DNA from: Candidatus Harrisonbacteria bacterium | GTDB lineage: Bacteria > Patescibacteriota > Minisyncoccia > UBA6257 > UBA11618 | Assembly (NCBI GenBank): GCA_023244835.1 | Contig: JAHFLN010000002.1 | Span: 1-54,748 of the forward strand | Length of the DNA stretch: 54,748 nucleotides | Reading direction: 5' to 3' | Part shown: one piece after another, positions 13,001 to 45,566 of the stretch | How the letters are laid out: the number at the start of each line of letters is the position of its first letter | Numbering within the stretch: the first letter of the stretch is position 1 | The notes under the pieces: model-generated | Told to the model about the DNA's origin: nothing | The model's database searches: none | Seen by the model: only the letters and a program-made list of their open reading frames with translations | Position numbers and translations under genes: made by a program

Positions 13001-14431
13001 TTACGGCTCGTATTTCCAGACCCGGTCGCTGATTTTCCCGTAGCGCGGGTCGCCGTGCGGCTCGAATGCCCCGCTTCTCCGGGCATTATAGATAAGCGCT
13101 TCTGTTTTTCCGGTGCGCCAGGGTTCTCTCGCAAACGACGAGGCGATTGCCGGATGCCCCCCATATCCTTCGAGGAATTGCCGATATGTCGGGCTGTTAA
13201 CGAAGATGGGCAATGCCCCATAGCGCCCGGCCAGCGCTTTTACTTCGGCGAATTCTCTTTTGTCCATAAGCGGCTCCATGCGAGCGCTTTCATAGAGCGT
13301 ATAGCCCGCAAGGGCGAGAAATAAGAGATATCCGCAAGCTTTCGATACGCGATTTCGTAGCAGTATTCCATAGAATATCTTTATCGTTTCTCCTGCGAGC
13401 ATGATTGCTGCGATGTCAAAAAGCAGTATGAACCTGTTATGGAAGATCGAATTGAGCGCAACGAGCGCGATCGTGACGAGCGCGTAGATTCCCATAAAAG
13501 AGAGCTTTTCGCTCCGGATGCCTTGCGCGAGCGCGTAAAGCGCGAATGGCAGATAAAACAGCATGAGCGCGCTGTGATAGAAGGAAAAGTTCACGAAATG
13601 TCCCGCGAGGAAGAGAGCTTTTTCCCGGCCGTATGTTCCTACCGCATATGACGCGGCGTTTTCCGCGTAGCCCGCGATAGCCGGGAATTGATAGATCAGG
13701 GTTCCGAGAAGCGATATGCCGAGAATCATCATCCCATATCGCTGTTTTTCCTTGTCGATGATCACGAGCCCTAGAAGCGTAATGGCGAGGGGCACGAATG
13801 TCACGAAATGGATGATTCCCGCCGCGGTCGCCCATAGCGCGGCATATGGAGACCTCCTTTGGTATGCCACCATAGCGCATAGCGTGAACGCCATCGCAAT
13901 TTCCATATTAAGGAAGAACGACCAGTATGTCAGAAATTGCGGAAGGGAAAGAGCGAATGCCATGAGACTCCAGAACGCCGCATTGCGGGAACTGTATTCT
14001 TTCGCTGCGACATAAAGCATCGCGGCAAGGCCTGCTTGCGCGCACAGCGCGAGGGTTATAAGCGCGGTCTCTGGTCCCATTCCGATCGCGCTCGACGGAT
14101 AGGCAAACAACGCGATGGGCGTCGCGGCACATGACGCGAACGTTTCGAGGCATCGGTTGAAATTCAGGTAATACGCGGCGCTATCGGCTCCCAGGCCCAT
14201 TATTCCTCCCCATCGCATGATCGGGAGCGCCCGCGATATAATCAGGATCGCGATGGGAATTCCAAGCATCGCATCGGGAATAACCGTTTTTTCCTCGTTT
14301 TCGCTTTTTTTGCTTGAGAGCGCCATGAATATTCCCCCGGCCAATGCCCAATATGCGAATATGGTCGTGAGCGGTGAACCGAGTGGCGTTGCCAGGAGCA
14401 CGAGCGCGAGATACGCTTGAGGCAGATTCAT
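13001..14431 (-). CDS. Polytopic membrane protein, GT-C-like (putative lipid-linked-sugar glycosyltransferase or polymerase)
   Basis: 476 aa with about 11 hydrophobic helices. An Asp-aromatic motif lies in an early loop (GLGADSAAYYLNF), and there is a C-terminal soluble tail. It is divergent from the GT2 gene with a 15-nt spacer. Confidence 0.6.
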   Translation of the reverse strand: MNLPQAYLALVLLATPLGSPLTTIFAYWALAGGIFMALSSKKSENEEKTVIPDAMLGIPIAILIISRALPIMRWGGIMGLGADSAAYYLNFNRCLETFASCAATPIALFAYPSSAIGMGPETALITLALCAQAGLAAMLYVAAKEYSSRNAAFWSLMAFALSLPQFLTYWSFFLNMEIAMAFTLCAMVAYQRRSPYAALWATAAGIIHFVTFVPLAITLLGLVIIDKEKQRYGMMILGISLLGTLIYQFPAIAGYAENAASYAVGTYGREKALFLAGHFVNFSFYHSALMLFYLPFALYALAQGIRSEKLSFMGIYALVTIALVALNSIFHNRFILLFDIAAIMLAGETIKIFYGILLRNRVSKACGYLLFLALAGYTLYESARMEPLMDKREFAEVKALAGRYGALPIFVNSPTYRQFLEGYGGHPAIASSFAREPWRTGKTEALIYNARRSGAFEPHGDPRYGKISDRVWKYEP

Positions 14432-14446
14432 GTGCCTCTATTCTAG

Positions 14447-15118
14447 ATGAACCGCATCGCCGTTGTCATTCCCGCTTATAACGAGGAGCGGAATGTCGCG
14501 CTTGTTGCGCGCGAAGCCGCACGGCATGCCGAGTGGGTCATCGTAGTGGATGACGGATCGCGCGACGGGACATGGGATGCCATACGAAGCCTTCAGCCTC
14601 CCATATTCCCGTATCGCCATATTATAAATCTTGGAAAAGGAGCGGCTTTGAAAACCGGATGCGCCGCCGCCGAGCTTTTCGGAGCTGCGGTTATCGTCAC
14701 GCTCGATGCCGACGGCCAACATCCTCCCGAATACATTCCCGGCATCGTGCGGCATATGGACGAGCACGGGCTCCAGTTCGTTTTCGGCGAACGGTCGGGC
14801 GGCGACCGGATGCCTTTCATCCGCCGCGCGGGGAATTACGCGATCAACCAGGCCGCGTACCGGCTCTTTAATCTTCGCACGCGGGACGTATGGTGCGGCT
14901 TCCGGGCATTTCGCGCGTCATGCCTGCCGCGCATTCCCTGGAAAGCCCGTGATTACTCGGGAGAAGTGCAGATGGCCCTCGCGGTCGGCAGGAGCGGCAT
15001 TCCTTACGGATCCTATTCCATACCCACCATATACGAGGAGGGTGCGGCAAAGGGCGTCCATATCCTCCATGGCCTGAAACTCCTCGGGCAGATGGCCTTA
15101 TGGCGCATGATGTCTTAA
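14447..15118 (+). CDS. GT2 polyprenyl-phosphate glycosyltransferase (DPM1/GtrB/ArnC-like)
   Basis: VVIPAYNEERNV, VVDDGSRDGT and LDADGQHPPEYIP. The last matches the DADxQH motif of polyprenyl-phosphate sugar synthases. Confidence 0.85.
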   Translation: MNRIAVVIPAYNEERNVALVAREAARHAEWVIVVDDGSRDGTWDAIRSLQPPIFPYRHIINLGKGAALKTGCAAAELFGAAVIVTLDADGQHPPEYIPGIVRHMDEHGLQFVFGERSGGDRMPFIRRAGNYAINQAAYRLFNLRTRDVWCGFRAFRASCLPRIPWKARDYSGEVQMALAVGRSGIPYGSYSIPTIYEEGAAKGVHILHGLKLLGQMALWRMMS

Positions 15119-15128
15119 GATATCCACC

Positions 15129-15461
15129 ATGGCAGGCATTCAGCTTATCGGGATTATCGTAGCGCTTTCGGCGATCCATTTAACCCATCTGTATTATAAG
15201 CGGTCTTATTTTTCGAAAAAGGAGCTGTTTTTTTGGGCGGGCTTATGGTGCGTTTTCATGGCACTAGCCCTTTTTCCCGGGAGCGTTTCCCCGCTTACCG
15301 GATATCTTGGTCTTGCGCGCCCTATGGATCTTATAATGATACTCGCGTTCATCGTTCTTTTTTCCGTCACATTTCATAATTACGTGATGGGTCGAACGCA
15401 TGATCGCGAACTTGAGCGCCTTGTCCGGACAATCGCTTTACGAGATGGCCGCCGACCCTGA
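15129..15461 (+). CDS. DUF2304-like small membrane protein (usual partner of GtrB-type GT2)
   Basis: 110 aa with 3-4 TM helices and a short charged C-terminal helix (HDRELERLVRTIALRD). It lies immediately downstream of the GT2 gene. Confidence 0.7.
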   Translation: MAGIQLIGIIVALSAIHLTHLYYKRSYFSKKELFFWAGLWCVFMALALFPGSVSPLTGYLGLARPMDLIMILAFIVLFSVTFHNYVMGRTHDRELERLVRTIALRDGRRP

Positions 15462-15466
15462 TTTCC

Positions 15467-16630
15467 ATGCGCATAGTCGTGTTCGCAGCTTTTTACTATC
15501 CTTACCGCGGAGGATACGTTGAAAGTGTGTACGAGGTTTCAAAAGGCCTTGTTGAGCGGGGTTTTGGCGTTACGGTGTTCGCGTGCGACACCCATCATGC
15601 CGCGCGGGAAGAGTTTCATGAAGGTATCTGCATAGTGAGGATTCCTTCGTGGAATTCCGCATGGCTGAATAACAGCTTTCCCCTGCCGAAGCCCTGGGCT
15701 CTCATCCCCCCCTTATTCCATTTATGGCGTGAGGATATCGACGCCATTATCACGGAGACGCGCTTTTTCCCCACGACGTTTATAGGGGCTGTCATGGGAT
15801 TCGTTCGCCGGATTCCCGTCGTGCATGTTGAGCAAGGCAGCTGTCACCCCGCAAGCCATCGCGGGGTCATACGCATTATCGGATCGATCATCGATCATAC
15901 GTTCGGATGGTTCGCGTGCCGCAGCGCTTCCGCGGTTGTCGGCGTTTCCGCTGCTGCCGCGGCATTTGCGAAGCATTTGGGAGCTCAAGATTCCCGTACG
16001 AGCGTCATACATAATCCAATCGATGTTTCATTTTGGCATCCTCTCCTCCACCCTTCTTTGCCGGACTCACGAGTCGTGATCGCGTTCGTTGGGCGTCTTA
16101 TCCATGCGAAGGGCGTGCAGGATCTCTTCCGCGCCCTCGTCCTCTTACGCGATTCCTTTTCTTTCCCTGAATTTTCTCGTATCGACGCAATCATCATCGG
16201 TGACGGTCCGTATCGAGCCGTTCTCGAACGGCTTGCGGCCGCATCCGGCCTTTCCCGCACCATCCGATTTCTCGGGGAAATGGATCGCATTCATATCCGT
16301 TCCGAGCTTCAGGCTGCGACCATTTTCGCGAATCCTTCGCATTCAGAGGGGCTGCCCGTATCAGTTCTCGAGGCCGCCGCCCTCGCTCTTCCTGTCATCG
16401 CAACAGATGTCGGTGGCACGCGGGAGGTCATTCCTTCCGAGTGCGGAATTCTCGTGCCTCCTCGCGATCCCGCCGCTTTTGCCGAGAAGCTTTTGTATGC
16501 CATCCGAAATCCCGAAGAATGCCGCATGTTCGGACGTGCCGCGCGCTCGCGCATCGAGAGCGCATTTTCAACTTCTTTCATCGTTGACGCGTATGAGCGC
16601 GTTCTCCGTTCCGTCATTTCCCATGGCTAA
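15467..16630 (+). CDS. GT4-family (GT-B) glycosyltransferase
   Basis: 387 aa with the N-terminus MRIVVFAAFYYPYRGG and the C-terminal motif NPSHSEGLPVSVLEAAALALPVIATDVGGTREVI. Confidence 0.85.
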   Translation: MRIVVFAAFYYPYRGGYVESVYEVSKGLVERGFGVTVFACDTHHAAREEFHEGICIVRIPSWNSAWLNNSFPLPKPWALIPPLFHLWREDIDAIITETRFFPTTFIGAVMGFVRRIPVVHVEQGSCHPASHRGVIRIIGSIIDHTFGWFACRSASAVVGVSAAAAAFAKHLGAQDSRTSVIHNPIDVSFWHPLLHPSLPDSRVVIAFVGRLIHAKGVQDLFRALVLLRDSFSFPEFSRIDAIIIGDGPYRAVLERLAAASGLSRTIRFLGEMDRIHIRSELQAATIFANPSHSEGLPVSVLEAAALALPVIATDVGGTREVIPSECGILVPPRDPAAFAEKLLYAIRNPEECRMFGRAARSRIESAFSTSFIVDAYERVLRSVISHG

Positions 16631-17786
16631 TATCCTCATCTTTTCCGTCGATTATTTCCCGTATGCCGGAGGCGCCGAAATCGCCGTTTCCGAGACGTGC
16701 GCCCGCATTCCAGGGCAATCGTTCGTCATGATCACATGCTGGAATGATCGTGCGCTTCCGCGCGAAGAGATGATTGGGAATATCCGCGTTTTCCGCGTCG
16801 GTATCGGCATTCGCGCCATTGACAAATACATCATGCCCGTCACCGCATTCTTCGCCGCGCGAAAACTTCATCGCGCGTCCCCCTTTTCCATAGCATGGGC
16901 GATCATGGCGAATACCGGAGCTATCGCTGCTTTCCTATTTACCCGCATCAATCGGAACGCGCGATATCTCCTGACTCTTCAGGAGGGCGACTCCGAGGCG
17001 TATTATGCTCGCCGTACGTGGTTTTGGGCTCCTTTGTATCGGGCGCTCCATGCGCGCGCCGACCATATCCATGCGATCAGCGGCTATTGCGCTTCCCGGG
17101 CACGACGATACGGATATCGCGGCGCAATTTCGATTATTCCGAACGGTATCGATTCGGTCTTATTTAACCCGTCTTCGCTTTCTTCTTCCGCCCGCGACCA
17201 CGCGCGAAGCGTCTCGCGCGCCCTTTCGGGAGAGCGTATTATTTTTACGGCATCTCGCCTCGAAGAGAAGAATGGCGTCGATATTTTGTTACGGGCGTAT
17301 GCTCTTTTTTCGGCCGGATGCGGCATTCCGTCGCGTCTCGTCATAGCCGGCACCGGCACCGAAGAGGCGTCCTTAAAGCGTCTCGCGCGCAGTCTCGGCA
17401 TTTCCGGATCCGTTTCGTTTCTCGGTTATCTTCCCCATGCGGAGATGGTTTCCGTGCTCAAGTCTGCCGATATTTTCGTTAGGCCTTCCCGTTCCGAGGG
17501 TTTAGGCAACGCCTTCCTCGAAGCTTTGGCATGCGGTATTCCGGCTATAGGAACGCCCGTTGGCGGCATTCCTGACTTCCTCGCCGATGGCATAACAGGC
17601 CTGCTTTCTCGGACGGAGGATCCGGCTTCTCTCGCTGATTGCATGAAACGCGGCCTTTTTGATTCTTCGTTGCGCGACGCGCTCATTTCCGGAGGACTTG
17701 CCGCCGTGCGGGAAAAATACGATTGGCATTACATAGCCCCGAAGATTTCAGCGATGCTTATTTCCCTATCAGCCGTTTCCGAATGA
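16623..17786 (+). CDS. GT4-family glycosyltransferase
   Basis: Starts at MANILIFSVDYFPYAGGAEI (ATG 16623, 8-nt overlap with the previous stop). Motif RPSRSEGLGNAFLEALACGIPAIGTPVGGIPDFL. Confidence 0.85.
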   Translation: MANILIFSVDYFPYAGGAEIAVSETCARIPGQSFVMITCWNDRALPREEMIGNIRVFRVGIGIRAIDKYIMPVTAFFAARKLHRASPFSIAWAIMANTGAIAAFLFTRINRNARYLLTLQEGDSEAYYARRTWFWAPLYRALHARADHIHAISGYCASRARRYGYRGAISIIPNGIDSVLFNPSSLSSSARDHARSVSRALSGERIIFTASRLEEKNGVDILLRAYALFSAGCGIPSRLVIAGTGTEEASLKRLARSLGISGSVSFLGYLPHAEMVSVLKSADIFVRPSRSEGLGNAFLEALACGIPAIGTPVGGIPDFLADGITGLLSRTEDPASLADCMKRGLFDSSLRDALISGGLAAVREKYDWHYIAPKISAMLISLSAVSE

Positions 17787-19860
17787 GATTCCGCATCCCT
17801 ATCATGGATAGGGCGATTAGTATGAGCGTAAACGGGATGAGCGGCAGGAGGTAACGGAAAAATCCGACGCTTACGATCGTAAGAACCAGGCTTTCCGCGA
17901 TTACCATTCCTCCGAGAAGGATGTAGTTTTTCCGTTTCATGCCAGGTTTTATGGTTTCCGGCCACGCCAGGAAAAAAACAGAAGCGGGAATGAACACGAC
18001 GAATGGAGCGAAGAGGGGCCAGTAGAACGGTTTTATTCCAAAGAATATACCCGCCTTCCCTACGAGAAATTCTCCATATTCCCATGGCCGTTCCCATATC
18101 CATTGGAGGTTTCGAGTCGCGCGCCCATCGACGAAGCGGTCCGCCATTTTCGCTATCTTTCGGGGCAGGGTTTTTTGCGGAACAAATCCTTCGGGAACCG
18201 GCGTTCCTATCATAAGGCTTGACGTGCCGCTTGAGCGCGATAATAATTCCATTTTTTCTCCGAATGCGTAGTTGCGGGCGAGAAACGGGGCAAGCACAAG
18301 TCCGTATCCCAGGATGAACGCGGTAAGCGGAATCGCGCTTTTCCGTCCCAGGCTCACCATGATCCATATGAGCGCGAGCGCGATGAATGCCTGCATGTTA
18401 TTCCTCATCAGGACGAGCAGTCCTCCGAGAATTCCCGCTATCGCGAAGCGGAGGGCGCCGTCTCGAGCTCCTTTTTTTTCCGCGTACAGGAGCATTATGA
18501 CCGTCCCTACGGCGAGGAGCGCTCCGATCGGATAGAGGCGCATCGCGTATTCCCGCATCATAGGATGGAGAAAAACGCCGATGCCGGCGGCATATACGAA
18601 CGCGTCGCGTTTTCCAACCATCATTTCCCCGATTTTTATCGTGAGTAGCGCGGTTGCCGTAAGCGCGATTCCTTGCAGCCATAGTATCGGGAAGATCGCT
18701 TCTCCGAAAATGAAGTGGGCGATGGCGAGGAGATAATAGTACAGTATCTGCCAATAGTACGAATGCTTTTCGTAGGCCGTCATCGCCCAGTCTCCCGTCG
18801 CGACAATATGACGCGCGAAAGTTTCATACAGGAGCGGATCGTCTCCGGCCGGAAGCAGGTTGAAATAGCGCGATCCTGCTTCCGCTATGAGCCCGTTCGC
18901 GAAAAAGGCGAATCCCGCGGCGCCGAGGGCGAGGAATACGAATCGATCCGAACGCAGCCATGCGCGCCATGATGCATATCGGCTTCGAAGCATCATGTAT
19001 CCGACGAAAAGCGCGATTGTGATCATAAGGATCCCCGTATTCGCTTTTTGCCATGCGTCGTCCTTTGCAAGCGTCTTCTCCGTTTCCGGTCTGACGCGCA
19101 TGAACTCTTCGGAAATTTTCACCGCATCTCCTCCATTCTTCCATGAGAGGGAGATATCCCTGATCGCCGCAGCGCCTGATTCATACCGTATTTCGAGAGG
19201 AGTCGTCCCTTTCTCATATGCGAGGGGAACGACGATAGGAGCCGTATTTCCGCTTATCGGAATTCCATTCAGCGACGCATATACCTTTGCATCCCCGTTT
19301 GCCGCGATGACGATGGCATCCGATCCTTTTCGAATGCGGATATTGCTTTTCCATATCGTTTCGAACGGGATGACTGTTTTGTCTATCCCGATGCTGTAGT
19401 CGCCGAACCGATCTTTGTCGTTCATGAACCATAAGGGGAACGGATGCGCGTCGAGCGGATAGCCTCCCGTCTTAAAGTCTATTTCAGGATCGACGCGCGT
19501 TTCGAGAAGGCTTATTTTCGTTCCGTTCGCGGTTGTTTCGGGGGCGTAATATGCGCCGATCGCCCCGCGTTCCGACGAATGCGATCGCGCGGCGATTTTT
19601 ATCCCCATCGCGATTATCAGTACGCACGCGATTATCGCGTACCATTTTACGTTCAGCTCGTCTTTTTCGCGTTTGTTTTCGGGCAGTGCCATGAAGCATC
19701 CGATCATGACAGTCAGGACTATGAGTTCGTGGAGCGTTCCGAGCGGGATTCCGTCGAGCCAGGGACCCAGTCCCGGAACTATGAGAAATAAAACGAACAG
19801 GCATTCACAGGAGCGTTTGAGAACGCGGATATTTTCCTTTATGATGGTGGGGAATGTCAT
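17758..19860 (-). CDS. Large GT-C-like membrane glycosyltransferase with an inserted PA14-like beta-domain
   Basis: 700 aa. It has N-terminal TM helices, then a ~190-aa soluble segment resembling PA14 (GAYYAPETT...RVDPEIDF...TIWKSNIRIRKGSDAIVIAANGDAKVYASLNG). This is followed by ~11 TM helices with the loop motif PAGDDPLLYETFARHI, typical of ArnT/PMT-like GT-C enzymes. Confidence 0.7.
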   Translation of the reverse strand: MTFPTIIKENIRVLKRSCECLFVLFLIVPGLGPWLDGIPLGTLHELIVLTVMIGCFMALPENKREKDELNVKWYAIIACVLIIAMGIKIAARSHSSERGAIGAYYAPETTANGTKISLLETRVDPEIDFKTGGYPLDAHPFPLWFMNDKDRFGDYSIGIDKTVIPFETIWKSNIRIRKGSDAIVIAANGDAKVYASLNGIPISGNTAPIVVPLAYEKGTTPLEIRYESGAAAIRDISLSWKNGGDAVKISEEFMRVRPETEKTLAKDDAWQKANTGILMITIALFVGYMMLRSRYASWRAWLRSDRFVFLALGAAGFAFFANGLIAEAGSRYFNLLPAGDDPLLYETFARHIVATGDWAMTAYEKHSYYWQILYYYLLAIAHFIFGEAIFPILWLQGIALTATALLTIKIGEMMVGKRDAFVYAAGIGVFLHPMMREYAMRLYPIGALLAVGTVIMLLYAEKKGARDGALRFAIAGILGGLLVLMRNNMQAFIALALIWIMVSLGRKSAIPLTAFILGYGLVLAPFLARNYAFGEKMELLSRSSGTSSLMIGTPVPEGFVPQKTLPRKIAKMADRFVDGRATRNLQWIWERPWEYGEFLVGKAGIFFGIKPFYWPLFAPFVVFIPASVFFLAWPETIKPGMKRKNYILLGGMVIAESLVLTIVSVGFFRYLLPLIPFTLILIALSMIGMRNLIRKRLIGK

Positions 19861-20711
19861 ATATTAGCCTTGCGCGGCCTCAGCAATGGATCAAGAATTT
19901 CCTTGTTTTCGCCCCGCTTTTTTTCGTCGGGCATGCGAGTCATCCTACCGAAATGTTCGCCGTTCTCACGACGTTCGCGATTTTTACCTGCTTTTCCGCA
20001 TGCGCCTATGTTTTGAATGATATCATCGATCGTTCTTCCGACGCATCGCATCCTACGAAACGCTTTCGCCCCATAGCTTTCGGCGCCGTATCTCCTCTTA
20101 AGGCCGGCATATTCGCGGCCGTTATTTTTCTCATTGCCGTATTAGTGATGCGCGCATTCGTTCCGGCAATTACGGGCATCATGACGGCGTATGCCGTTCT
20201 CGCGGTTTTTTACACGCTTATTTTGAAGAATATTCCGCTGGTCGATATTTTTACCGTTTCGTCCTTTTATCTCCTACGCGTCGCGGCGGGAGGAGCGGCG
20301 ATCGATATCATTCCTTCCCGATGGCTCGTCGCATGCGTCATGTTTTTCGCGCTTTTCATCGTTCTCGGGAAGCGTCGCGCCGAGTGCGTGCATTCCGAAC
20401 CGCGCGCCGTTCTCGCTCTCTATGGTCCCGATCCCGACGGCATGCGGGACATGCTTGATCGGCTGATCCTTATTGCCGCGGCAGTCTCGATCGCCTCATA
20501 CGGGGCGTACGCGATACTCGCCGTTGAGTCCGATTGGACGGTTTACTCCCTCTTTTTCGTCATGTTCGGCGTATTCCGATATATTTTTCTCATATATCAC
20601 TCGGCATTTGCCGAATCGGCCGAGGTCGCCCTTATGAAAGACATGCCGCTTTTCCTTTCGGTTTTCGCCTGGATACTCTTCATGTATGTTGCCGTATATC
20701 ATTTCGTATGA
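19854..20711 (+). CDS. UbiA-family polyprenyl-phosphate 5-phosphoribosyltransferase (Rv3806c/DPPR-synthase-like)
   Basis: RPQQWIKNFLVFAPLFF, YVLNDIIDRSSDASHPTKRFRPIAFGAVS, and FYLLRVAAGGAAIDIIPSRWL...VLGKRRAE. These parallel M. tuberculosis Rv3806c (RPRQWVKNVLV, YLVNDVRDVEADREHPTKRFRPIAAG, AYLIRAIAGGVATKIPLSKWF...VAGKRYAE). Confidence 0.85.
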   Translation: MSYISLARPQQWIKNFLVFAPLFFVGHASHPTEMFAVLTTFAIFTCFSACAYVLNDIIDRSSDASHPTKRFRPIAFGAVSPLKAGIFAAVIFLIAVLVMRAFVPAITGIMTAYAVLAVFYTLILKNIPLVDIFTVSSFYLLRVAAGGAAIDIIPSRWLVACVMFFALFIVLGKRRAECVHSEPRAVLALYGPDPDGMRDMLDRLILIAAAVSIASYGAYAILAVESDWTVYSLFFVMFGVFRYIFLIYHSAFAESAEVALMKDMPLFLSVFAWILFMYVAVYHFV

Positions 20712-25155: not shown

Positions 25156-25239
25156 TGAGTTCTCAAGCCTTTTTTTAGGACGCATTTTCCGAATAACCTC
25201 TTTTATTTTATGGCGATCATGTATTAGAATCATCTCATA

Positions 25240-33228: not shown

Positions 33229-33244
33229 GATGGCATTCTAAGCC

Positions 33245-38046: not shown

Positions 38047-39262
38047 AGCCGAAATTTTTAATAACGGGCGATGCTTTAAACCGTTCGAGCTTTCGCATGA
38101 GCGGAATAAGCCTTTTGAAATACGGAAGGCACAGGCTTGATGCCTGGAATGAAACGATGCGGAACCCACCGTTTTTCAGCTTTCGCCGCATAACCCACGG
38201 ATACCGCCATATATGGGGAAGACGGCTGTCTCCCGAATATCCTTCGTTGACCCCTTCTCCTCCTAAGTTGAGGATTATCCGTATGCATCCCACAAACCAC
38301 GCTGTCAGGCTCCAGCGGGAAATATCCCAGAACGCATCGCCTCCAAGGACAATAGCGGCGCACGGGTTCAGGCAGGTCGGCATGGCGATGATCGCTTTTT
38401 TCGTCGTCACGCGCCTTATTTCCGCGAGGGCTTTTTCAAAATCAGGAACGTGTTCCAGGACATGCGAGCTGATCACCCAATCGAACGAATTATCTGCGAA
38501 TGGGAGCGATTCTGCGTCTGCGGTCATAAACTCCACATATGCTTCAAGTCCTTTCTTTTCAGCCTGTTTTTTTCCCGCCGCGATATTTATAGGAGATATG
38601 TCGCAGGCGGTCACTCGTGCTCCTTTTTGCGCGAGCATGATGGCTAATGTTCCATCGCCGCAGCCTGCATCCAGAACTTTTTCTCCCGCGCATATGAATT
38701 GCGCGATAGAGCGGTATTCCGTCTCATGAGCGTATTTTCGCAAGGGGAACTCCTTTGAAAGACGCACATCGTTTTGCCGTTCCGTCCTCTTCCGATATAT
38801 TTCCTTGATTTCTTCGTCGGGAACGCCCGTTTCGTTCTTGCTATCCATGCCTTGTATCACGCTCGCTATTATGAGCCAATACACTATGAAAAAGAGAGCT
38901 GCCGCGTAAGGCATCGCTACGCCACTTCCGGAGAGCGTTCTGTAGATTTCCGTATTAGCCTGATACGCGAACAATGCCCATAGGATGACGATCGATCCGG
39001 TTATCGATACCGCGCTTGGTTTCAGGCGAGCGATCGTTATCCGCATCCCTCCATCCCCCCCTTTCTTTCTGGCTACCCGCGAGCATATTTTCAATGCCGT
39101 GCTTATCCCGATAAACCAGGCGATTGTCCGCAGCTTGATTCCTGATTCACGCATGAGCGCCGGATACGCCCAATTCATGCTTCCTAGCAACGCCGCCGCC
39201 GCACTATACCATGCGAAGCTCGCGTCATTCACCTCCATAATGAAACGGAGGGCCTTTTTCAT
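38018..39262 (-). CDS. Membrane-anchored class I SAM-dependent methyltransferase
   Basis: N-terminal ~4 TM helices, then VLDAGCGDGTLAIMLAQKGARVTACD, LPFADNSFDWVISSHVLEHV. Confidence 0.8.
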   Translation of the reverse strand: MKKALRFIMEVNDASFAWYSAAAALLGSMNWAYPALMRESGIKLRTIAWFIGISTALKICSRVARKKGGDGGMRITIARLKPSAVSITGSIVILWALFAYQANTEIYRTLSGSGVAMPYAAALFFIVYWLIIASVIQGMDSKNETGVPDEEIKEIYRKRTERQNDVRLSKEFPLRKYAHETEYRSIAQFICAGEKVLDAGCGDGTLAIMLAQKGARVTACDISPINIAAGKKQAEKKGLEAYVEFMTADAESLPFADNSFDWVISSHVLEHVPDFEKALAEIRRVTTKKAIIAMPTCLNPCAAIVLGGDAFWDISRWSLTAWFVGCIRIILNLGGEGVNEGYSGDSRLPHIWRYPWVMRRKLKNGGFRIVSFQASSLCLPYFKRLIPLMRKLERFKASPVIKNFGYGSIAVVEK

Positions 39263-41115
39263 GGGTTTTTTCGCGGGAATCGGTACACGATGTACGAATC
39301 GGTTTCATTCCAGGATTTGAATATTTTTTCGAACGCATTCCGGGCAGAGAATTCTCCCGGAGTCTTTTTCGTGATGATCCCTATTCCCGGGGACGGTATG
39401 TCTTCTATGTCTTTTTGCTCGTGCGCAAACATATCGAATGTTTCGCATGTTTTCGCCGAGCATTCTCCCGTTACGGAAAACCATGGCCGCGGAGAGAATA
39501 TCCATTGGGCATATGGCACGAGAATCGGATTTCCGAAGCTTATTACCGCTCCCTCCGGGAAGGCGTCATTGACGCTTTTTATCTTTTCGATGGCTTGTTT
39601 TTGTGCTGCGGCATATACTCCTCCGTCTCGTCCGGTTATCATATCGAGAGCGACTAATTCTTGCTGCCCTTTCGCTACCTTAAGCATGATCGGAAGCATT
39701 AGCATTATGGCGAATATAGCGCTGCCTCTCGCAAGATTTTCCGCTCCGGAACGGCGTATCGCGAGGATCGCGGCCGCAATTGGCAGGAGAGCGAGCACGC
39801 TCACGCTTGGATACATAACAAGAAAATAACGGAATGACTGCCAGCTGGCATAAAACGCATGGTATGCGATGAAAGGCGTTATGAGGAACAGCCAGGGCAA
39901 CGCGAACCCGAACGCGAGAGCGAGAAGAAGACGTCTGCGTTCTTTGTCGAAGCATGCCATGAGCGGAATCAGCGCCATGCCCGCAATGGCAAGCCAGATG
40001 ATCTTTTGTTGGGGTTTGTCGATATATGGCTGATCCCATATGGTTAGATTTTTTGCGTATTCGTCGGCATAGCTGATAAGTTCCATGGGATAATAGTCAA
40101 GGACGCCTCCGGCATAGAGGCCGTATAGGACTATAACAATGCATGTCGGCAGGAAGGCTATTTTCTCGAAGATATGCCAATGCGTTTCGTACGCCTTCCC
40201 GCTTATGCGCGCGACAATCACCCGTGTTCCTTCGTATAGCACCTTCGCCGTTCCGACGCTTAAGACGAACATCGTGAATGTCGCCAGATGCGTGAAATAA
40301 AAAAGTACCATGAACGCAATTCCTCCCGCGCCGCTGATATTTCTTCCGAGGAGAATGAACCCCGCGATAAGAAGGAATATCCCTATATTTTGAGGAACGA
40401 TATCCGTCGATATCATGTAGTAATTTGACCAGTGGAGCATATAGAAGGCTATCGGGGCGAGTATCCCCAATGTGCGCACCGGCACCGCTTCATACGCGAG
40501 CCGTGCCATCGCGCATGCCGTAAGCATGTATGCGCCATATTGCCATGCGGTCATAAAGAATTGGTATGCGGCAAGGTTTTTCGGCAGGAAGGAGACGTAT
40601 GGATTTAAGATCATGAAGAAAATCGGCTGAAAAATCGGATCCCTAAAGAAAAATGAAAAGATCGCTCCGGGAGCATGCGCTGAGCGGTTTGCGTAGGCGA
40701 GCCAGTAATATTGGTCGGTTGCCGGATTGAAATACGGATTCGGGAGATCTTTCATCACGCCGTACAAGAGCAGTCCCAGGAGGCTTGTGACGATGAGCGT
40801 CATCGCGTCATAGGGCGATACGGTTATCTTTACGAGATTCTCCTTTCGTTTCACCTGTCTGTATGTCCAGGCTAATAGAGCGAGTACGGCTAGTGCCGCG
40901 ATGGTTACGCGCAGCCTCGGATCATCCGAGAGAAATAAAAAAAAATTAGCCGAAATAGCGATGAGTATCTGGCATCCGAAACCGAACAGCGCGCCATATA
41001 TGAGAAAAAGAACGAGATCAGCCGAGCGTTCACGAACGAATATCCTTGCCGCGGCGATTCCGGGCAGGAGAAACGTGATGGCGAAGGGTACTATGACGGC
41101 GACGCCGGTATTCAT
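39259..41115 (-). CDS. Polytopic membrane protein, GT-C-like
   Basis: 618 aa with more than 12 TM helices, the early loop motif NPATDQYYWLAYAN, and a C-terminal soluble domain. ATGA overlap with the downstream methyltransferase gene. Confidence 0.6.
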   Translation of the reverse strand: MNTGVAVIVPFAITFLLPGIAAARIFVRERSADLVLFLIYGALFGFGCQILIAISANFFLFLSDDPRLRVTIAALAVLALLAWTYRQVKRKENLVKITVSPYDAMTLIVTSLLGLLLYGVMKDLPNPYFNPATDQYYWLAYANRSAHAPGAIFSFFFRDPIFQPIFFMILNPYVSFLPKNLAAYQFFMTAWQYGAYMLTACAMARLAYEAVPVRTLGILAPIAFYMLHWSNYYMISTDIVPQNIGIFLLIAGFILLGRNISGAGGIAFMVLFYFTHLATFTMFVLSVGTAKVLYEGTRVIVARISGKAYETHWHIFEKIAFLPTCIVIVLYGLYAGGVLDYYPMELISYADEYAKNLTIWDQPYIDKPQQKIIWLAIAGMALIPLMACFDKERRRLLLALAFGFALPWLFLITPFIAYHAFYASWQSFRYFLVMYPSVSVLALLPIAAAILAIRRSGAENLARGSAIFAIMLMLPIMLKVAKGQQELVALDMITGRDGGVYAAAQKQAIEKIKSVNDAFPEGAVISFGNPILVPYAQWIFSPRPWFSVTGECSAKTCETFDMFAHEQKDIEDIPSPGIGIITKKTPGEFSARNAFEKIFKSWNETDSYIVYRFPRKNP

Positions 41116-41121
41116 ATCCGC

Positions 41122-41706
41122 TTATAGGGGGCGTCCTACCAATTCGAGCTCATATGCGCCAATCCAGTCTTCGGGAGATTCTGCCGTCAGGCGTACTGCC
41201 GACGCGTTGTAATTCCCTTTAACTATAGTTTCCCTGCTTTTCGGAAGATTCCCTTCTTCAATAGTCGTCCATTCATTGTCGTCTCTTTTTGCTTCGAGTT
41301 TCCAATGAGTCACGTATTTGCTTATAGTGCCGTAGTCCCCCCAGATAATGATCGTTTTGCTGATTTGGTACGGCTCGGTCAGCGTGAGTATGTAATCCAA
41401 TCGGCGATTTCCCGGAGCAGCAAGCGTCCGTTCATCCCCGTCTATGAGTTTTGCGGCATCGGTTCCCTTGTCGATGCTATATTCTTTCGATTCGTATGTC
41501 CCGCTTGTTATAAAGAGATTTTCTTTCCCCAGTCTTTTAAATCCTACCCGTTCCGCATTCAAATTATTACCACACGCGATCGAGCGGATCGATAGCGGGA
41601 AAGATATATTGCTTCCGATGCATAGGCGGACGATACCGACCGAAAGAATAACCGATATGCTTACGGCTATTCCTGCCGTTATCGCTATGCCATGCCACTT
41701 ATCCAT
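41122..41706 (-). CDS. Membrane-anchored F5/8 type C (discoidin) carbohydrate-binding domain protein
   Basis: 194 aa with an N-terminal TM helix, then AKLIDGDERTLAAPG...ISKTIIIWGDYG...YVTHWKLEAKRDDNEWTTI...ASAVRLTAESPEDWIGAYELELVG. Confidence 0.7.
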   Translation of the reverse strand: MDKWHGIAITAGIAVSISVILSVGIVRLCIGSNISFPLSIRSIACGNNLNAERVGFKRLGKENLFITSGTYESKEYSIDKGTDAAKLIDGDERTLAAPGNRRLDYILTLTEPYQISKTIIIWGDYGTISKYVTHWKLEAKRDDNEWTTIEEGNLPKSRETIVKGNYNASAVRLTAESPEDWIGAYELELVGRPL

Positions 41707-41712
41707 GTGTCA

Positions 41713-43314
41713 TTATTGTAGTCGTGCGTACTCTTTCCAGTCAATCGAAAAAATACGCGCTTTCGACTGGGAATTCGTCCCGTAATTTGAATATATCTCC
41801 TTGAGATAGGGCGGTATCCGTTCGCCGTCATAGATGCTCAGGTACTTGTTCGGCACGAACGGTATCGGGTTCTGAACGTCGTCTTCTAGGGCTATATGCG
41901 TCACTTTTCGCATTCGCATGATGGGCATCGCCTCTTCCAAGGAGTCGAATTTTCCCGGATAGGTTATGCGCAGTCGCGATTTCGGCGCGTATAGGTCGAG
42001 CATGCCGACGCCTCCGACCTCCGTGTCCGGCAGGAGCATCATTATATTCATGCCGTTTCCTATCGCGAGCACGCCCCGCACGTGGGCTGCTGCCCATCTT
42101 GCCCATACGAGGCTGTCCGCCGTTACGCGCGAGACGTCTTTCGTGAATCGTCGCGCGCTGAAGAGGAATACCGAAATCGAAACGCAGAGTATGACGGCTT
42201 GTGAGGCGGCAAAAATACTGAGAACCATCTTTTTCGATTCGGGGCGACTGGCGATCATCGCTTTCACTCCCGCCGCGCTCATGATGATGCCTAACGGGGC
42301 GATGGGGAAAAGATGCCGCGTGAGATAATAGAGATAGAAAATGGGCGTAAGGCTCGCGATCCATATGCCAATACCTGTCCATATCGGGAACCATAGCGGA
42401 TCGCGCCACGTAACGACTACTCCGTACAGGAAGAAGAAGATTCCTGGAAGGAGAACATAGGCGAAATATATGAGCGCGAGGAGTGTTCCGGCGATGAAAA
42501 ATCTATTGAATATATCTCCTGCCGTGTGCGATGCGAGATAGTTTCCGATCGAGACCGAGGGGGCGGCCCCCCATACGTCGACGTATCGTTCGACGAAATA
42601 TTTGCTATTTTCTCCGTAATCGAATGCGGAGCCGAATTGCGCGTGGCGCATGTAGAGCATGGGTCCCGAAACGGCGAAGAAAACGGCGATCATGAGAAAT
42701 GCCGTTCCGAGAGCGCGCCACCGGCCCGCTTTACACGATATGAGGAACGATACGACGAGTATAGGCAGGATCATGATGCCGTTCGGCCGCACCCAGTATC
42801 CGAGGCCCGCGACGGCGCTTGCGGAATATGCGAATGCGGCATTATCGCATCCTTTATATATAAGGCATAGGCTCGTGATGAAGATTAGGGTGAAGAGCGA
42901 TTCTGTGAATATAAATAGATTGTCGGGGATGATGATTGGAAAGGCGAATATGAACATGATAATGGCCCCGAGAGACGCCTCCTTCGACCGAGTGAGCTTA
43001 TAAGAAAGCCATGCGAGTGGAAAAACGATCGCGGCGCCCGTTACCGCGGTCACTAGTACGCCGATCAGGAAATGTTCGAATATGGATTGCCCTCCCCATA
43101 GATATAGGAACGGCGCGAGAAAGGCAGGGAGACCGATGCCGTGCGTGTGGATAGGGAGCCAATTTCCCCTCGTAATCTCAAGCGCTTTTAATACGTATAT
43201 ATACGCATCATATTTTTGGATCGGGAAGGTGGTGATATGCAGTATGGGAAAAACCACCGCGAGGCGCACCGTCGCCGCCAAAAGGAACAAATAGAAAACG
43301 TGGAGGAATCGCAT
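41713..43314 (-). CDS. GT-C glycosyltransferase (ArnT/PMT, GT39/83-like)
   Basis: 533 aa with first-loop motif QKYDAYIYVLKALEI, about 12 TM helices and a C-terminal periplasmic-type domain. Confidence 0.75.
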   Translation of the reverse strand: MRFLHVFYLFLLAATVRLAVVFPILHITTFPIQKYDAYIYVLKALEITRGNWLPIHTHGIGLPAFLAPFLYLWGGQSIFEHFLIGVLVTAVTGAAIVFPLAWLSYKLTRSKEASLGAIIMFIFAFPIIIPDNLFIFTESLFTLIFITSLCLIYKGCDNAAFAYSASAVAGLGYWVRPNGIMILPILVVSFLISCKAGRWRALGTAFLMIAVFFAVSGPMLYMRHAQFGSAFDYGENSKYFVERYVDVWGAAPSVSIGNYLASHTAGDIFNRFFIAGTLLALIYFAYVLLPGIFFFLYGVVVTWRDPLWFPIWTGIGIWIASLTPIFYLYYLTRHLFPIAPLGIIMSAAGVKAMIASRPESKKMVLSIFAASQAVILCVSISVFLFSARRFTKDVSRVTADSLVWARWAAAHVRGVLAIGNGMNIMMLLPDTEVGGVGMLDLYAPKSRLRITYPGKFDSLEEAMPIMRMRKVTHIALEDDVQNPIPFVPNKYLSIYDGERIPPYLKEIYSNYGTNSQSKARIFSIDWKEYARLQ

Positions 43315-43319
43315 GCGGA

Positions 43320-44074: not shown

Positions 44075-44099
44075 GCTCTCATGGTCCATTCGGGATTTC

Positions 44100-45566
44100 T
44101 TACGCTTTTCCATGCGTTCCTTTCTCGAAATACTCCTCTTCTCCGCCGATGCGTTCCAGGTCATGCCGTTTTCCTTCGATCACGCTCCGCGCGGCCATGA
44201 TGCCCATTTCGAGCGAATGATCCTGGTTGTTGTAACGGAATCGTCCTGGCCGCCCTATATAATGGAGATTTTCGAACCGGTCGAGGTATTCCTTCACCGG
44301 GTCGAGGTACGAGCGGTATTCGGTGTCGTAGATCGGATAGACTTTTTTCTGTCGGATCAGATAACTTTCCCTCACTTCGTCTTGCCTGCAGAAGCCGAGG
44401 CGTTCCAGGTGCCCCATCGCGAGCCCGAGCAGGTATTCTTTCGGAGCGTTCCATATAGCGTCTCCTTCGAAGCAGAAGAATTCGATGAAGAGGGACGTCT
44501 TTCCCGGCGGGCTCATTTTCTGGCTGAAATTCTTCATTTCGCTGATCCTGCCGAAGGGGATTTGTTTTTCCGGAAAATAGATCCATTGATCGTGCGTAAC
44601 CCGTTCCTTGTCGAGGGTTATGAAGAGGTATGTCTGGTCCCGGTAGCGCATTCTTTCCGCGGCGGCCATCACAGCTTCTGGCGGTACGGGGTCTAACAGC
44701 TTCAGGAATTCCTTCGGCGGGATCGATTCGATGATTTGGTCGGGGGCCGTTTCCTCCGTCCTATCCCCTGCCTTCAGGGTTATTCCCGTGATCCGTTTCC
44801 CGTCATGCCGAATTTTTATCGGGTAGGTTCCGCATCGCACGGGATGTCCTCCGTCCGCGAGTTTTTTCGCGATCGTTTCATAGATAAGTCCCGTGCCGTA
44901 TTCGGGGTAATAGAAACTATCCACGAGCGTGCGGAGCGGAGCGGTGCGGAAGGACCCTATGGCGCCCTCCATAGCCGCTTTAATGAGAAATCCCACCGAG
45001 AGCCCCTTGATGCGCTGGGTCGCCCAATCCGAATGTATCGTCGAGGCTTTTACGCCCCAAATTTTTTCTGTGTAATTTATCATATTAAACTCGGCGAGCG
45101 TCCTGCCGAAGTGCGCCACCACATGATCCTCGAAATTTCGGATCGGCTTTTTCATGAGGCCGTAGCGTGCCTGCGCGACGCAGTAATCGGCGATCATTCG
45201 CACGGCTTTCGTGGGGCCGATATTCGCGAGCGCTTGCACGGGTTTTATGGGGTAGTCGTAGAATTTTCCGGCGATGTGCTGGCGCGTCTGTCTCTTCACT
45301 TCAATCCAGCGTTCGCCTACAAGTTCGCCTATGAATTCGTAGAGGTAGGGATTTTTCGAGAAGAACCGGTGCGGGCCGTTATCCGTGCGGAAGACGAGCC
45401 CGTCTTCGTCGAATGAGTATGTCTTCGCGAGGCCTCCCGGGATATCCGCCTTTTCCACGACCGTAAATTTCTCTCCCGCCTTCGAAAGCTCGATCGCCGA
45501 TGCGAGTCCCGCAGGCCCTGCTCCTATCACATATGTTTCCCGCATATGGGCTAAGAGTACGCTCAT
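44100..45566 (-). CDS. FAD/NAD(P)-binding oxidoreductase (amine-oxidase / UDP-galactopyranose-mutase-like superfamily)
   Basis: 488 aa with dinucleotide fold YVIGAGPAGLASAIELSKAGEKFTVVEKADIPGG, then TDNGPHRFFSKNPYLYEFI. Confidence 0.8.
   Translation of the reverse strand: MSVLLAHMRETYVIGAGPAGLASAIELSKAGEKFTVVEKADIPGGLAKTYSFDEDGLVFRTDNGPHRFFSKNPYLYEFIGELVGERWIEVKRQTRQHIAGKFYDYPIKPVQALANIGPTKAVRMIADYCVAQARYGLMKKPIRNFEDHVVAHFGRTLAEFNMINYTEKIWGVKASTIHSDWATQRIKGLSVGFLIKAAMEGAIGSFRTAPLRTLVDSFYYPEYGTGLIYETIAKKLADGGHPVRCGTYPIKIRHDGKRITGITLKAGDRTEETAPDQIIESIPPKEFLKLLDPVPPEAVMAAAERMRYRDQTYLFITLDKERVTHDQWIYFPEKQIPFGRISEMKNFSQKMSPPGKTSLFIEFFCFEGDAIWNAPKEYLLGLAMGHLERLGFCRQDEVRESYLIRQKKVYPIYDTEYRSYLDPVKEYLDRFENLHYIGRPGRFRYNNQDHSLEMGIMAARSVIEGKRHDLERIGGEEEYFEKGTHGKA

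Follow-up and report, generated by a model that had tools for sequence, protein, structure and literature searches.

The stretch of DNA analysed here (54,748 bp, GC content ~0.55, from contig JAHFLN010000002.1 of a Candidatus Harrisonbacteria bacterium; hereafter the window) carries, between positions 13001 and 45566, a putative surface-glycan locus of 30 genes, as counted from an open reading frame (ORF) listing with greedy gene selection. For about 27 of the 30, a glycan role is supported by family, profile or fold, and so many adjacent genes in glycan-related families are far beyond chance. An earlier note on this DNA had proposed a surface-glycan locus of about 30 genes and about 32 kb between a wall-binding protein gene and rplK, and this proposal holds; Pfam and NCBIfam scans, judged against curated cut-offs, uphold nearly all of the family calls behind it. 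The locus combines module types that are already known. Its host belongs to the Patescibacteria, or candidate phyla radiation (CPR), bacteria that are attached to host cells, have very small genomes and whose surface chemistry is almost unstudied.

On the left, the locus is flanked by the gene of a membrane-anchored peptidoglycan-binding protein with a transmembrane (TM) segment and a PG_binding_1 domain (11424-12935), and the region 5' of position 13001 holds the housekeeping genes for RNase III, NusB, RNase HII, DnaE, a class II aminoacyl-tRNA synthetase and GatB. On the right, rplK (45621-46046) is followed by nusG, gyrB and pheST, and the gap between rplK and the first locus gene contains a terminator-like hairpin with a T8 tract on the minus strand (45600-45585), which forms the right border. 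This hairpin excepted, promoter and terminator scans revealed no enrichment over shuffled sequences. The operon structure described previously is also borne out. The plus-strand array from 19854 to 32575 comprises 13 genes with 12 junctions, an ATGA 4-nt overlap being available at seven of them, overlaps of 1-29 nt occurring at four and an 84-nt gap at one, and the genes of the minus-strand array overlap or are separated by gaps of 5-10 nt according to the gene calls on sister contigs.

A chimeric assembly, which breaks in coverage or composition would have betrayed, is ruled out by composition, strand skew and three independent assemblies. GC content stays at 0.49-0.57 throughout the locus. 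Over the whole window, the plus strand is T-rich regardless of gene orientation, with a third-position T excess for the pooled genes of both orientations (coding-strand third-position AT skew of -0.40 for plus-strand and +0.24 for minus-strand genes) and a slightly negative GC skew. The gene order of both locus halves and both flank junctions is reproduced in the assemblies ENA ERZ27296333 (a 289,656-bp contig), ENA ERZ27280176 and Logan SRR14366769, the latter two with shorter contigs; the middle part at ~24.5-32.6 kb is spanned by no single short contig. Related loci are labelled L0xx below, L001 and L002 being other assemblies of the same organism.

Candidate lipid-linked sugar modules

The 13-gene array opens with a UbiA-family protein (19854..20711, plus; PF01040) that resembles polyprenyl-phosphate 5-phosphoribosyltransferases (PPPRS), including the decaprenyl-phosphate enzyme (DPPRS). 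Its three best NCBIfam matches are all decaprenyl-phosphate phosphoribosyltransferase models (E 6e-48), with heme O synthase following at E 1e-12, and two motifs are intact, NDIIDRSSD at residues 55-63 (NDxxDxxxD) and RRAE at residue 174 (RxxE), in agreement with the DPPR-synthase-like UbiA called before. The importance of both motifs was shown by mutagenesis in Citrobacter youngae ORF15 and in Rv3806c (PMC11127046). The next gene encodes a class I S-adenosylmethionine (SAM) methyltransferase (20708..21418, plus; Methyltransf_11 E 3.8e-24), followed by an extended short-chain dehydrogenase/reductase (SDR) of the epimerase/dehydratase family (21415..22446, plus; PF01370 E 1.4e-37). The latter carries the motifs TGGSGFLG and YGKAK, corresponding to TGxxGxxG and YxxxK as in the ORF13 epimerase of C. 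youngae, and is a candidate lipid-linked pentofuranose epimerase of the ORF13 type. The SDR gene is absent from L015 and L018 and is therefore seen as accessory, as in the Citrobacter O1/O2 pair. A small HAD-IIIA-like protein with a weak YqeG-family match (22446..22895, plus) completes this group as the candidate phosphoribose 5-phosphatase (PRP); it shows a DVEGT motif at residue 37, with Glu in the second acidic position, and its homologue follows UbiA in L015 and L018.

Divergently from UbiA lies the gene of a large polytopic protein (17758..19860, minus), which is predicted to consist of an N-terminal PA14-like extracytoplasmic domain and a probable core of the glycosyltransferase C (GT-C) type. 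In each of the six contexts that show the upstream side (the window, L015, L016, L017, L018 and L019), this protein or its homologue is the divergent neighbour of UbiA. A methyltransferase recurs with the pair: it follows UbiA in the window, L016 and L019, adjoins the gene of the 17758 homologue in L015, and in L018 is joined to that homologue in one protein, with Methyltransf_25/11 at the C-terminus (L018:1771-4428). When the divergent genes of UbiA and 17758 are read from their longest conserved N-termini, their 5' ends share 7 nt (19854-19860); gene callers start UbiA 33 codons later and so avoid the overlap, and the homologues align from residue 1. Of the 17758 homologues, the most distant is that in L020, and immediately downstream of it lies a DDE transposase (DDE_Tnp_1 plus DUF4372; L020:2161-3357).

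This group corresponds, by analogy, to a published pentofuranose three-component system and had not been recognized as such before. According to Kelly et al. (2024), a PPPRS and a HAD phosphatase make undecaprenyl-phosphate (Und-P)-linked ribofuranose, an optional SDR epimerase converts it (there into xylofuranose), a MOP-family flippase exports the donor, and a GT-C with a carbohydrate-binding module (CBM) adds it to the glycan (PMC11127046). The C. youngae O1/O2 system consists of ORF15 (PPPRS-PRP), the MATE flippase ORF14, the GT136 GT-C ORF12 with its CBM, and the SDR epimerase ORF13 (PMC11127046). Its counterparts in the window are the UbiA-type phosphoribosyltransferase, in which both motifs recur, the GalE-like SDR, a candidate phosphatase of the HAD type, a MOP-superfamily flippase within the locus, and a large polytopic partner with a predicted beta-rich sugar-binding domain. 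There are differences as well. The window HAD is a separate small gene with a weak score, whereas in Citrobacter it is fused to UbiA; the sugar-binding domain is N-terminal and PA14-like instead of a C-terminal CBM; and the methyltransferase is embedded in the window module and, in L018, fused to the polytopic protein. The polytopic protein itself may correspond to the GT136 GT-C, judging by its genomic pairing with UbiA and weak GT-C signals, and the host is a monoderm-type CPR bacterium, in contrast to a Gram-negative that makes O antigen. The Wzx-like protein, the only Polysacc_synt-family MOP protein in the locus, is encoded 17 kb from UbiA. We propose that 17758 is a pentofuranosyltransferase that would use the UbiA product.

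A second group, next to the left border, comprises a polytopic protein with ~9 hydrophobic segments (13001..14431, minus), whose assignment as a PMT_2-like GT-C comes from its relatives, a soluble GT2 of the polyprenyl-phosphate sugar synthase type (GacI/PpgS/DPM1 type; 14447..15118, plus; PF00535 E 1.1e-24; no TM segment), and a small three-TM DUF2304 protein similar to GacJ and Rv3632 (15129..15461, plus; PF10066 79.5 bits vs cut-off 25.5). Hydrophobic and TM segments were counted here and below by a crude hydropathy count. The trio is kept in L015 at 47-61% identity and with the same divergent pairing. In the GacI/GacJ/GacL system of Streptococcus pyogenes and the PpgS/Rv3632 system of Mycobacterium tuberculosis, the DUF2304 protein activates the synthase of the polyprenyl-phosphate-linked N-acetylhexosamine (HexNAc), and a GT-C moves the sugar onto its acceptor outside the membrane (10.1101/180810). 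With a soluble GT2, a DUF2304 protein and an adjacent GT-C of a PMT_2-like family, the window holds a gene set of the GacI/GacJ/GacL type, and the GtrB/DPM1-type GT2 with DUF2304 partner described earlier matches this precedent.

The likeness to GacI/GacJ/GacL(/GacK) and PpgS/Rv3632 thus lies in the soluble GT2 standing beside a three-TM DUF2304 protein and a polytopic GT-C, in the presence of a Wzx-family protein within the locus, and in PpgS being the best NCBIfam match of the GT2. PpgS, dolichyl-phosphate hexose transferase, AglJ and ArnC models are the best matches of this enzyme, all of them below their equivalog cut-offs. In contrast to the known systems, the window GT2 lies far under the PpgS cut-off (80 vs 370); the window GT-C is a remote PMT_2-like protein, and the locus is without rhamnan backbone genes or an ABC exporter. 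By analogy, 13001 is likely the extracytoplasmic user of the product of the neighbouring GT2, in a role like that of GacL or Rv3779.

Polytopic proteins and the right-hand block

Four polytopic ORFs (13001, 17758, 39259 and 41713), each with ~9-15 hydrophobic segments, had been described as GT-C-like. This now stands for 13001, 39259 and 41713, and 17758 is a probable member only. None of the four has a direct match in Pfam (up to E 10), NCBIfam or the PDB sequences, and an all-against-all BLASTP comparison found no similarity among them. For 17758 and 39259, as well as for the candidate Kdo transferase 33245 described below, phmmer and profile searches against PDB sequences with the proteins and their family alignments yielded noise only. 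Evidence was therefore sought in their relatives. An exhaustive HMMER search assembled 158 relatives of 13001, and 13 of the 60 that were aligned match PF13231 (PMT_2), with four of the 60 matching EpsG; D83 is invariant in a loop motif with the consensus PLGYDTGxY. For 41713 (41713..43314, minus), 16 matching proteins were found among 5.8 billion (15 homologues and the window's own), four of which carry PF13231 and one PF03901 (Glyco_transf_22), and the loop that follows the first helix has D36 and Y40 as invariant residues. The PMT_2 assignment of 13001 and 41713 thus comes through relatives, as neither protein itself matches the model. In hhalign comparisons, the 39259 and 41713 families align to the 13001 family with probabilities of 95.5% and 96.4%, respectively. 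Together with the PMT_2-positive relatives and the invariant acidic residues D83 and D36, as expected of the first extracytoplasmic loop, these alignments support placing 13001 and 41713 in the GT-C superfamily.

The gene 39259..41115 (minus) encodes a predicted GT-C-fold glycosyltransferase of a family without a Pfam or NCBIfam model. Its 25 matching proteins (24 homologues and the window's own) include none with a Pfam domain, and no curated GT-C sequence family in Pfam or NCBIfam matched the protein or its 24 homologues. Structure prediction, which had been suggested for all four proteins, was informative in this case. An AlphaFold2 (AF2) model built on the alignment of homologues reached a predicted local distance difference test score (pLDDT) of 89.3 and a predicted TM-score (pTM) of 0.91. 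Foldseek against the PDB returned GT-C proteins for all of the top 10 matches, including the arabinofuranosyltransferase AftA (E 3.4e-4), ALG9, DPY19, ALG12, AglB and ArnT, with probabilities of 0.98-1.0 and modest TM-scores of 0.31-0.43, transporters following only at E > 0.1. The model therefore supports a GT-C fold for 39259.

For 17758, three homologues were found in 5.8e9 proteins and three more by a scan of JGI metagenomes. Its AF2 model is unusable, and the only semi-confident segment matches PA14 domains in Foldseek, which is a hint only. Two homologues gave sub-threshold matches, one to PA14 (L020) and one to PMT_2 (L018; E 0.0047, spanning 5-157/160 of the profile). The invariant motif D341...Y345-E346 follows a TM helix. 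With four sequences, the 17758 family gave non-significant hhalign results against the other three families. From these signals, 17758 is a probable GT-C only. Two of the four GT-C-type families are thus without a Pfam or NCBIfam model and have a handful to about two dozen members each: the 39259 family is invisible to both collections, and the 17758 family has fewer than 10 known members.

The gene of 39259 belongs to the minus-strand array that forms the right-hand block. Directly beside it, at 41122..41706 (minus), lies the gene of a membrane-anchored, predicted carbohydrate-binding protein of the discoidin (F5/8 type C) type (PF00754 36.4 vs 28.2; N-terminal TM segment), and this neighbourhood is kept in all nine related loci, the discoidin gene being directly upstream of the 39259 homologue in eight and downstream in L011. 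On the other side, a membrane-anchored class I SAM methyltransferase (38018..39262, minus; Methyltransf_11 E 3e-28; TM at ~84-133) is 45-50% identical in six of the nine, and a MOP-superfamily, Wzx-like flippase (36754..38046, minus; a 430-aa gene call) scores above both Pfam cut-offs (Polysacc_synt_3 35.5 vs 23; Polysacc_synt 30.2 vs 28.2). The calls of a Wzx flippase and a discoidin-domain protein are hence both sound. Across the nine loci, a Wzx-like gene occurs in six, a 41713 homologue in five and the flavoprotein described next in four (61-76% identity). These loci come from metagenome-assembled genomes (MAGs) labelled Candidatus Saccharibacteria, Parcubacteria group or Patescibacteria group, labels that are consistent with a reduced genome.

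At the right end, 44100..45566 (minus) encodes a flavoprotein similar to UDP-galactopyranose mutase (UGM), with NAD_binding_8, Amino_oxidase and GLF matches. Its best PDB match is the eukaryote-type UGM 4dsg (E 1.1e-27, residues 11-462), and 14 further UGM sequences follow at ~E 1e-16 to 1e-17, which bears out the Glf-like flavoenzyme called previously. The GLF domain score lies above its cut-off (29.8 vs 26.3), and the bacterial Glf equivalog TIGR00031 reaches only 52 vs 304, so that the substrate of this enzyme is uncertain.

Between the flavoprotein and 41713 lies a Methyltransf_24 gene (43320-44164, minus; PF13578), which is frameshifted in the window and split into ORFs of 173 aa (43320-43841) and 105 aa (43847-44164). 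In L001 and L002, gene calling gives a single Methyltransf_24 gene of 256 aa; relative to both, the window lacks 1 nt in an A-run near 44040. A mistake in the assembly, a difference between strains or phase variation at this site could account for the deletion. The 105-aa ORF is a by-product of the frameshift and no gene. An alternative genetic code was rejected as an explanation of the split, as TGA, TAA and TAG all end genes and the split is due to a 1-nt indel. The count of four SAM methyltransferases (20708, 32572, 38018 and this gene) is hence upheld by hidden Markov model (HMM) searches, with one of them disrupted in the window. In P0004 and P0005 (L003-L006), relatives of ~60-62% identity, the 41713 homologue carries Methyltransf_24 as an N-terminal fusion. 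Fusion to a SAM methyltransferase thus recurs among the GT-C-type proteins of this lineage, N-terminally in the 41713 homologue and C-terminally in the 17758 homologue.

Cytoplasmic enzymes, Kdo activation and neighbouring genes

Seven enzymes of the GT4/GT-B type are assigned by Pfam, in agreement with the previous count of about seven. Two of them follow the DUF2304 gene on the plus strand, at 15467..16630 (Glycos_transf_1 E 3.5e-36 plus Glyco_transf_4) and 16593..17786 (Glycos_transf_1 E 2e-35; 397 aa as called on sister contigs). The others stand in the 13-gene array, at 22892-24004 (Glycos_transf_1 E 5e-34), 24001-25155 (Glycos_transf_1 E 8e-28), 26695..27738 (a GT-B with Glyco_trans_1_4 E 5e-13, for its GT4-type C-terminal half only), 30234/30267-31466 (an ATGA-overlap start being available at 30267) and 31463-32575. 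Both 22892 and 24001 are kept in L015 at 43-44% identity, and the GT-B at 26695 is kept in L015, L018 and L010.

The same array encodes a branch 1 histidine phosphatase (25240..25875; PF00300 (His_Phos_1) E 2.1e-35; no NCBIfam equivalog reached), a cytoplasmic sulfotransferase (25853..26707; Sulfotransfer_3 56.9 bits vs cut-off 27, plus Sulfotransfer_1; no TM segment), a CE4 polysaccharide deacetylase (27735..28460; PF01522 E 6.9e-19) and an AsnB-type glutamine amidotransferase (28432..30270; Asn_synthase E 6.5e-71; TIGR01536 377 vs cut-off 267). Together with the SDR, these donor and modification genes had all been called before, and all pass curated cut-offs. Having neither TM segments nor signal peptides, the seven GT4s, the histidine phosphatase, the sulfotransferase, the CE4 enzyme and the AsnB protein are taken to be cytoplasmic. 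Genes for the synthesis of the sulfate donor 3'-phosphoadenosine-5'-phosphosulfate (PAPS) are not found in the window.

Between the two arrays lies a block for 3-deoxy-D-manno-oct-2-ulosonic acid (Kdo). It starts with a SAM methyltransferase of low GC content (0.45) on the minus strand (32572..33228; Methyltransf_23 plus Methyltransf_11), followed on the plus strand by a 454-aa cytoplasmic protein (33245..34609), kdsB (34606..35346) and a protein with a weak 2OG-Fe(II)-oxygenase-like N-terminal domain and a C-terminal domain with one TM segment (35343..36776; PF13640). KdsB, the CMP-Kdo synthetase, passes its equivalog cut-offs (NF003952 266 vs 193; TIGR00466 182.6 vs 155.2), as expected from its earlier assignment. 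A nonulosonic-acid cytidylyltransferase (PseF/NeuA) was considered and rejected, PseF reaching 36 bits vs 183-266 for KdsB. The 33245 gene overlaps kdsB by 4 nt, and its product has no match in Pfam (up to E 10), NCBIfam or the PDB.

In a Saccharibacteria MAG (CAYSNH010000001.1; L014:17722-20801), KdsB and a 33245 homologue (445 aa aligned at 30% identity) are fused into a single 708-aa ORF, adjoining a KpsF/GutQ arabinose-5-phosphate isomerase (264 bits vs 203.7), AsnB and a 2OG-like gene. This fusion ties 33245 to CMP-Kdo, and the simplest guess from these sequences is that 33245 is a Kdo transferase. Near the fusion, L014 also encodes a 703-aa protein that joins a Gfo/Idh/MocA-type oxidoreductase (inositol-2-dehydrogenase-like) to a D-2-hydroxyacid dehydrogenase. 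Residues 3-225 of 35343 are conserved in L014. A 2OG-oxygenase fusion with a fifth methyltransferase-like domain had been suspected for 35343-36776; the oxygenase call is weak, and the methyltransferase-like domain has no HMM support. That architecture, a 2OG-Fe(II) oxygenase plus Methyltransf_23, does occur in a 522-aa protein of another related locus (L007:13078-14643). The Kdo activation step is notable in that neither this organism nor other CPR bacteria would be expected to make lipopolysaccharide (LPS), no LPS genes having been searched for.

These cytoplasmic enzymes bear on whether the PMT_2-like proteins act on proteins. Under such an alternative, they would glycosylate secreted or surface proteins, such as type IV pilins, S-layer proteins or the adjacent wall-binding protein, directly from polyprenyl-phosphate-linked sugars. 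There are precedents for a protein route, namely the actinobacterial Pmt enzymes and TfpW of Pseudomonas, which arabinosylates pilin with a UbiA-derived donor. The relatives of 13001 and 41713 do match the protein-mannosyltransferase family, and the absence of a polymerase and a ligase (see below) fits direct transfer to protein. Moreover, a DPPRS-type UbiA supplies the donor for pilin arabinosylation in P. aeruginosa (PMC11127046). However, seven GT4s, Kdo activation, the sulfotransferase, the CE4 deacetylase and AsnB point to a larger glycan, the locus holds no pilin or S-layer gene, and the lectin-like PA14 and discoidin domains suggest glycan acceptors. Besides, PMT_2 is a broad family that includes lipid- and glycan-directed transferases. 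Protein O-glycosylation as the function of the locus is, in our view, quite improbable.

Outside the locus, the gene 6217-7209 (minus) encodes a membrane protein (330 aa, six hydrophobic segments) that matches no family. With a GC content of 0.39 (GC3 0.41) vs ~0.55 (~0.65) for its neighbours, it is the sole composition dip in the window and looks foreign. Just upstream of a murD-like gene lie two plus-strand tRNA-Met (CAT) genes (53265-53337 and 53873-53945), 536 nt apart. Between them and pheS, 52038-53153 (minus) encodes a 371-aa protein with ~four hydrophobic segments and no family match; in relatives, this position is likewise taken by a gene without annotation.

A probable envelope glycan island and its proposed assembly

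Building on protein families, folds, motifs and gene pairings kept in relatives, all of which are direct observations, we consider it probable that this Patescibacteria bacterium carries here a composite island for cell-envelope glycans, located at a chromosomal site that is conserved, next to rplK-nusG-secE-gyrB-pheST, with a mechanism that families and context suggest. The decorated glycan envisaged before (methylated, sulfated, amidated and deacetylated, part of which would be made from lipid-linked monosaccharides on the outer side of the membrane) is upheld by HMM searches, profile-profile comparison, structure prediction and synteny. The further idea of a single heteropolymer locus fared differently. 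A surface-glycan locus it is, but its left and right halves occur separately in relatives: the left-hand block recurs alone in L015, and the right-hand block recurs beside rplK with other neighbours. In the relatives of ~60-62% identity, for instance, it abuts rplK-nusG-secE-gyrB-pheST with an inserted Acyl_transf_3 gene and different GT4 and methyltransferase genes. The locus is for this reason best described as an island of modules for which a single pathway or a single polymer is not demonstrable from relatives. That its product is an important envelope structure with a possible part in host attachment, as the earlier note suggested, is speculative.

An initiating phosphoglycosyltransferase (PGT), Wzy (Wzy_C), Wzz, an ABC exporter and an LCP ligase gave no Pfam or NCBIfam match in the 54.7-kb window including the flanks, in keeping with the earlier statement that no Wzy, Wzz or ABC-exporter signature is obvious. 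As polymerase, chain-length regulator, exporter, initiator and ligase are not in the island, it is not a self-contained Wzx/Wzy or ABC pathway. The locus does share with Wzx/Wzy capsule and O-antigen loci its dense operons of GT4s, sugar-modifying enzymes and a Wzx-like flippase, and differs from them in that searches of the window revealed neither Wzy nor Wzz, nor an initiating transferase, a ligase or export proteins. A classical repeat-unit polysaccharide was weighed nevertheless, in which the GT4s would build an undecaprenyl-pyrophosphate (Und-PP)-linked repeat, the Wzx-like protein would flip it, one of the supposed GT-Cs would be a Wzy-type polymerase or ligase, and the initiator would be encoded elsewhere. 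The Wzx-like protein scoring above its cut-offs and the seven GT4s typical of repeat-unit loci agree with this, polymerases are hard to detect by sequence, and four of the 60 relatives of 13001 match EpsG, a family that we take to comprise putative polymerases. Yet PMT_2 matches outnumber EpsG matches by 13 to 4 among these relatives, and the structural matches of 39259 are GT-Cs that use polyprenyl-phosphate-linked sugars and oligosaccharyltransferases, with no ligase or polymerase. Each polytopic gene, furthermore, is paired with a lipid-phosphate-sugar synthase, a lectin-like domain or a methyltransferase, in the manner of side-chain addition. We regard this Wzx/Wzy alternative as unlikely. 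More probably, the product is a glycan that lacks repeats or is extended by GT-Cs, be it a lipoglycan, a wall glycan, or a set of decorations borne by a polymer or protein whose synthesis is primed elsewhere.

For the envelope glycan island, the following course is conceivable, in which the substrates, the sequence of reactions and the type of acceptor are all inferred. At the cytoplasmic face, the seven GT4-type enzymes would assemble a saccharide with a lipid or a lipid-linked molecule as primer, the initiator not being encoded in the island. Sugars would be supplied as CMP-Kdo by KdsB with its neighbour 33245, and probably as a furanose nucleotide sugar by the UGM-like flavoprotein. The sulfotransferase, the CE4 deacetylase, AsnB, the SAM methyltransferases and possibly the 2OG oxygenase would tailor the saccharide in the cytoplasm. 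In parallel, two lipid-linked donors may be made: a polyprenyl-phosphate-linked hexose or HexNAc by the soluble GT2, activated by its DUF2304 partner, and a polyprenyl-phosphate-linked pentofuranose from phosphoribosyl pyrophosphate (PRPP) by UbiA, the HAD-like phosphatase and, optionally, the GalE-like SDR epimerase. The single MOP/Wzx-like protein, perhaps with helpers, would then move lipid-linked material across the membrane. Outside, the four polytopic GT-C-type transferases would add sugars to the glycan, and from their pairings we surmise that 13001 works with the GT2 set, the PA14-like 17758 with UbiA, 39259 with the discoidin protein and 41713 with the methyltransferase to which it is fused in relatives.

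Several observations weigh against this account. Every donor, acceptor and sugar identity in it is read from gene families and their arrangement. The UbiA protein scores 163 bits, under the NCBIfam equivalog cut-off of 207. The HAD phosphatase, also called by the earlier note, stands as a weak assignment, with a YqeG (HAD-IIIA) match in NCBIfam at E 1e-9 and 38 bits vs a cut-off of 89 and no Pfam match at E 0.01. The 2OG domain of 35343 (PF13640, E 0.0016) reaches 19.8 bits vs a cut-off of 27, and KdsA, KdsC and KdsD are not in the window. For 17758, the four-sequence alignment gave a model with a pLDDT of 44.7, and hhalign with six sequences against the 41713 family reached only 66% probability (E 5.7e-5). 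Furthermore, two lipid-phosphate-sugar synthases face four GT-Cs, and neither is assignable as the donor source for 39259 or 41713. The EpsG-matching relatives of 13001 mean that one polytopic protein could be a polymerase, and the Methyltransf_24 gene is frameshifted in the window.

Another comparison concerns the mycobacterial machinery for arabinogalactan (AG) and lipoarabinomannan (LAM), which comprises UbiA/Rv3806c, Glf, PimA/B, Ppm1 and the Emb/Aft/Mpt transferases. The window resembles it in its GT4 steps, a polyprenyl-phosphate-hexose synthase, a DPPRS-type UbiA, a UGM-type flavoenzyme and several extracytoplasmic GT-Cs, in that no Wzy, PGT or ABC exporter is required, and in AftA being the top match of 39259. 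It differs in that no DprE1 (FAD_binding_4) or DprE2 domains are found in the window, an extended SDR (PF01370) standing in their place; its phosphatase is HAD-like instead of PAP2, its UGM relative is closest to the eukaryote-type enzymes, and its GT-Cs match no Emb/Aft Pfam family. The Kdo, sulfation and amidation genes, moreover, have no counterpart in the mycobacterial machinery. By analogy, the toolkit resembles the logic of LAM and arabinogalactan more than that of a capsule locus. One may go further and speculate on an actinobacteria-style, furanose-rich lipoglycan or wall glycan that is started on a lipid by GT4s, extended and branched outside the membrane by four divergent GT-Cs with polyprenyl-phosphate-linked pentofuranose and hexose as donors, and decorated with Kdo, sulfate, amide and O-methyl groups; as a description of the actual product this is doubtful. 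Were it true, the GT-C-methyltransferase fusions and the discoidin and PA14 partners would represent new GT-C subfamilies for methylated sugars, and the variable island beside rplK would be a serotype or host-range determinant of episymbionts.

Returning to the composite envelope glycan island, each of its modules has a characterised precedent, and there is no new kind of mechanism; what is new is the unusually dense combination of modules in a CPR lineage. Our literature search found no paper linking CPR bacteria with GT-C enzymes and nothing useful on Saccharibacteria and arabinofuranose. The locus offers a concrete parts list for this surface, with two complete-looking three-component systems for lipid-monophosphate-linked sugars, Kdo activation, a UGM-like enzyme and four divergent GT-Cs. 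If confirmed, it would extend the pentofuranose pathway of 2024 and the GacIJL logic to the CPR, and would represent a hypervariable glycan island at a fixed chromosomal site that could underlie host or phage specificity.

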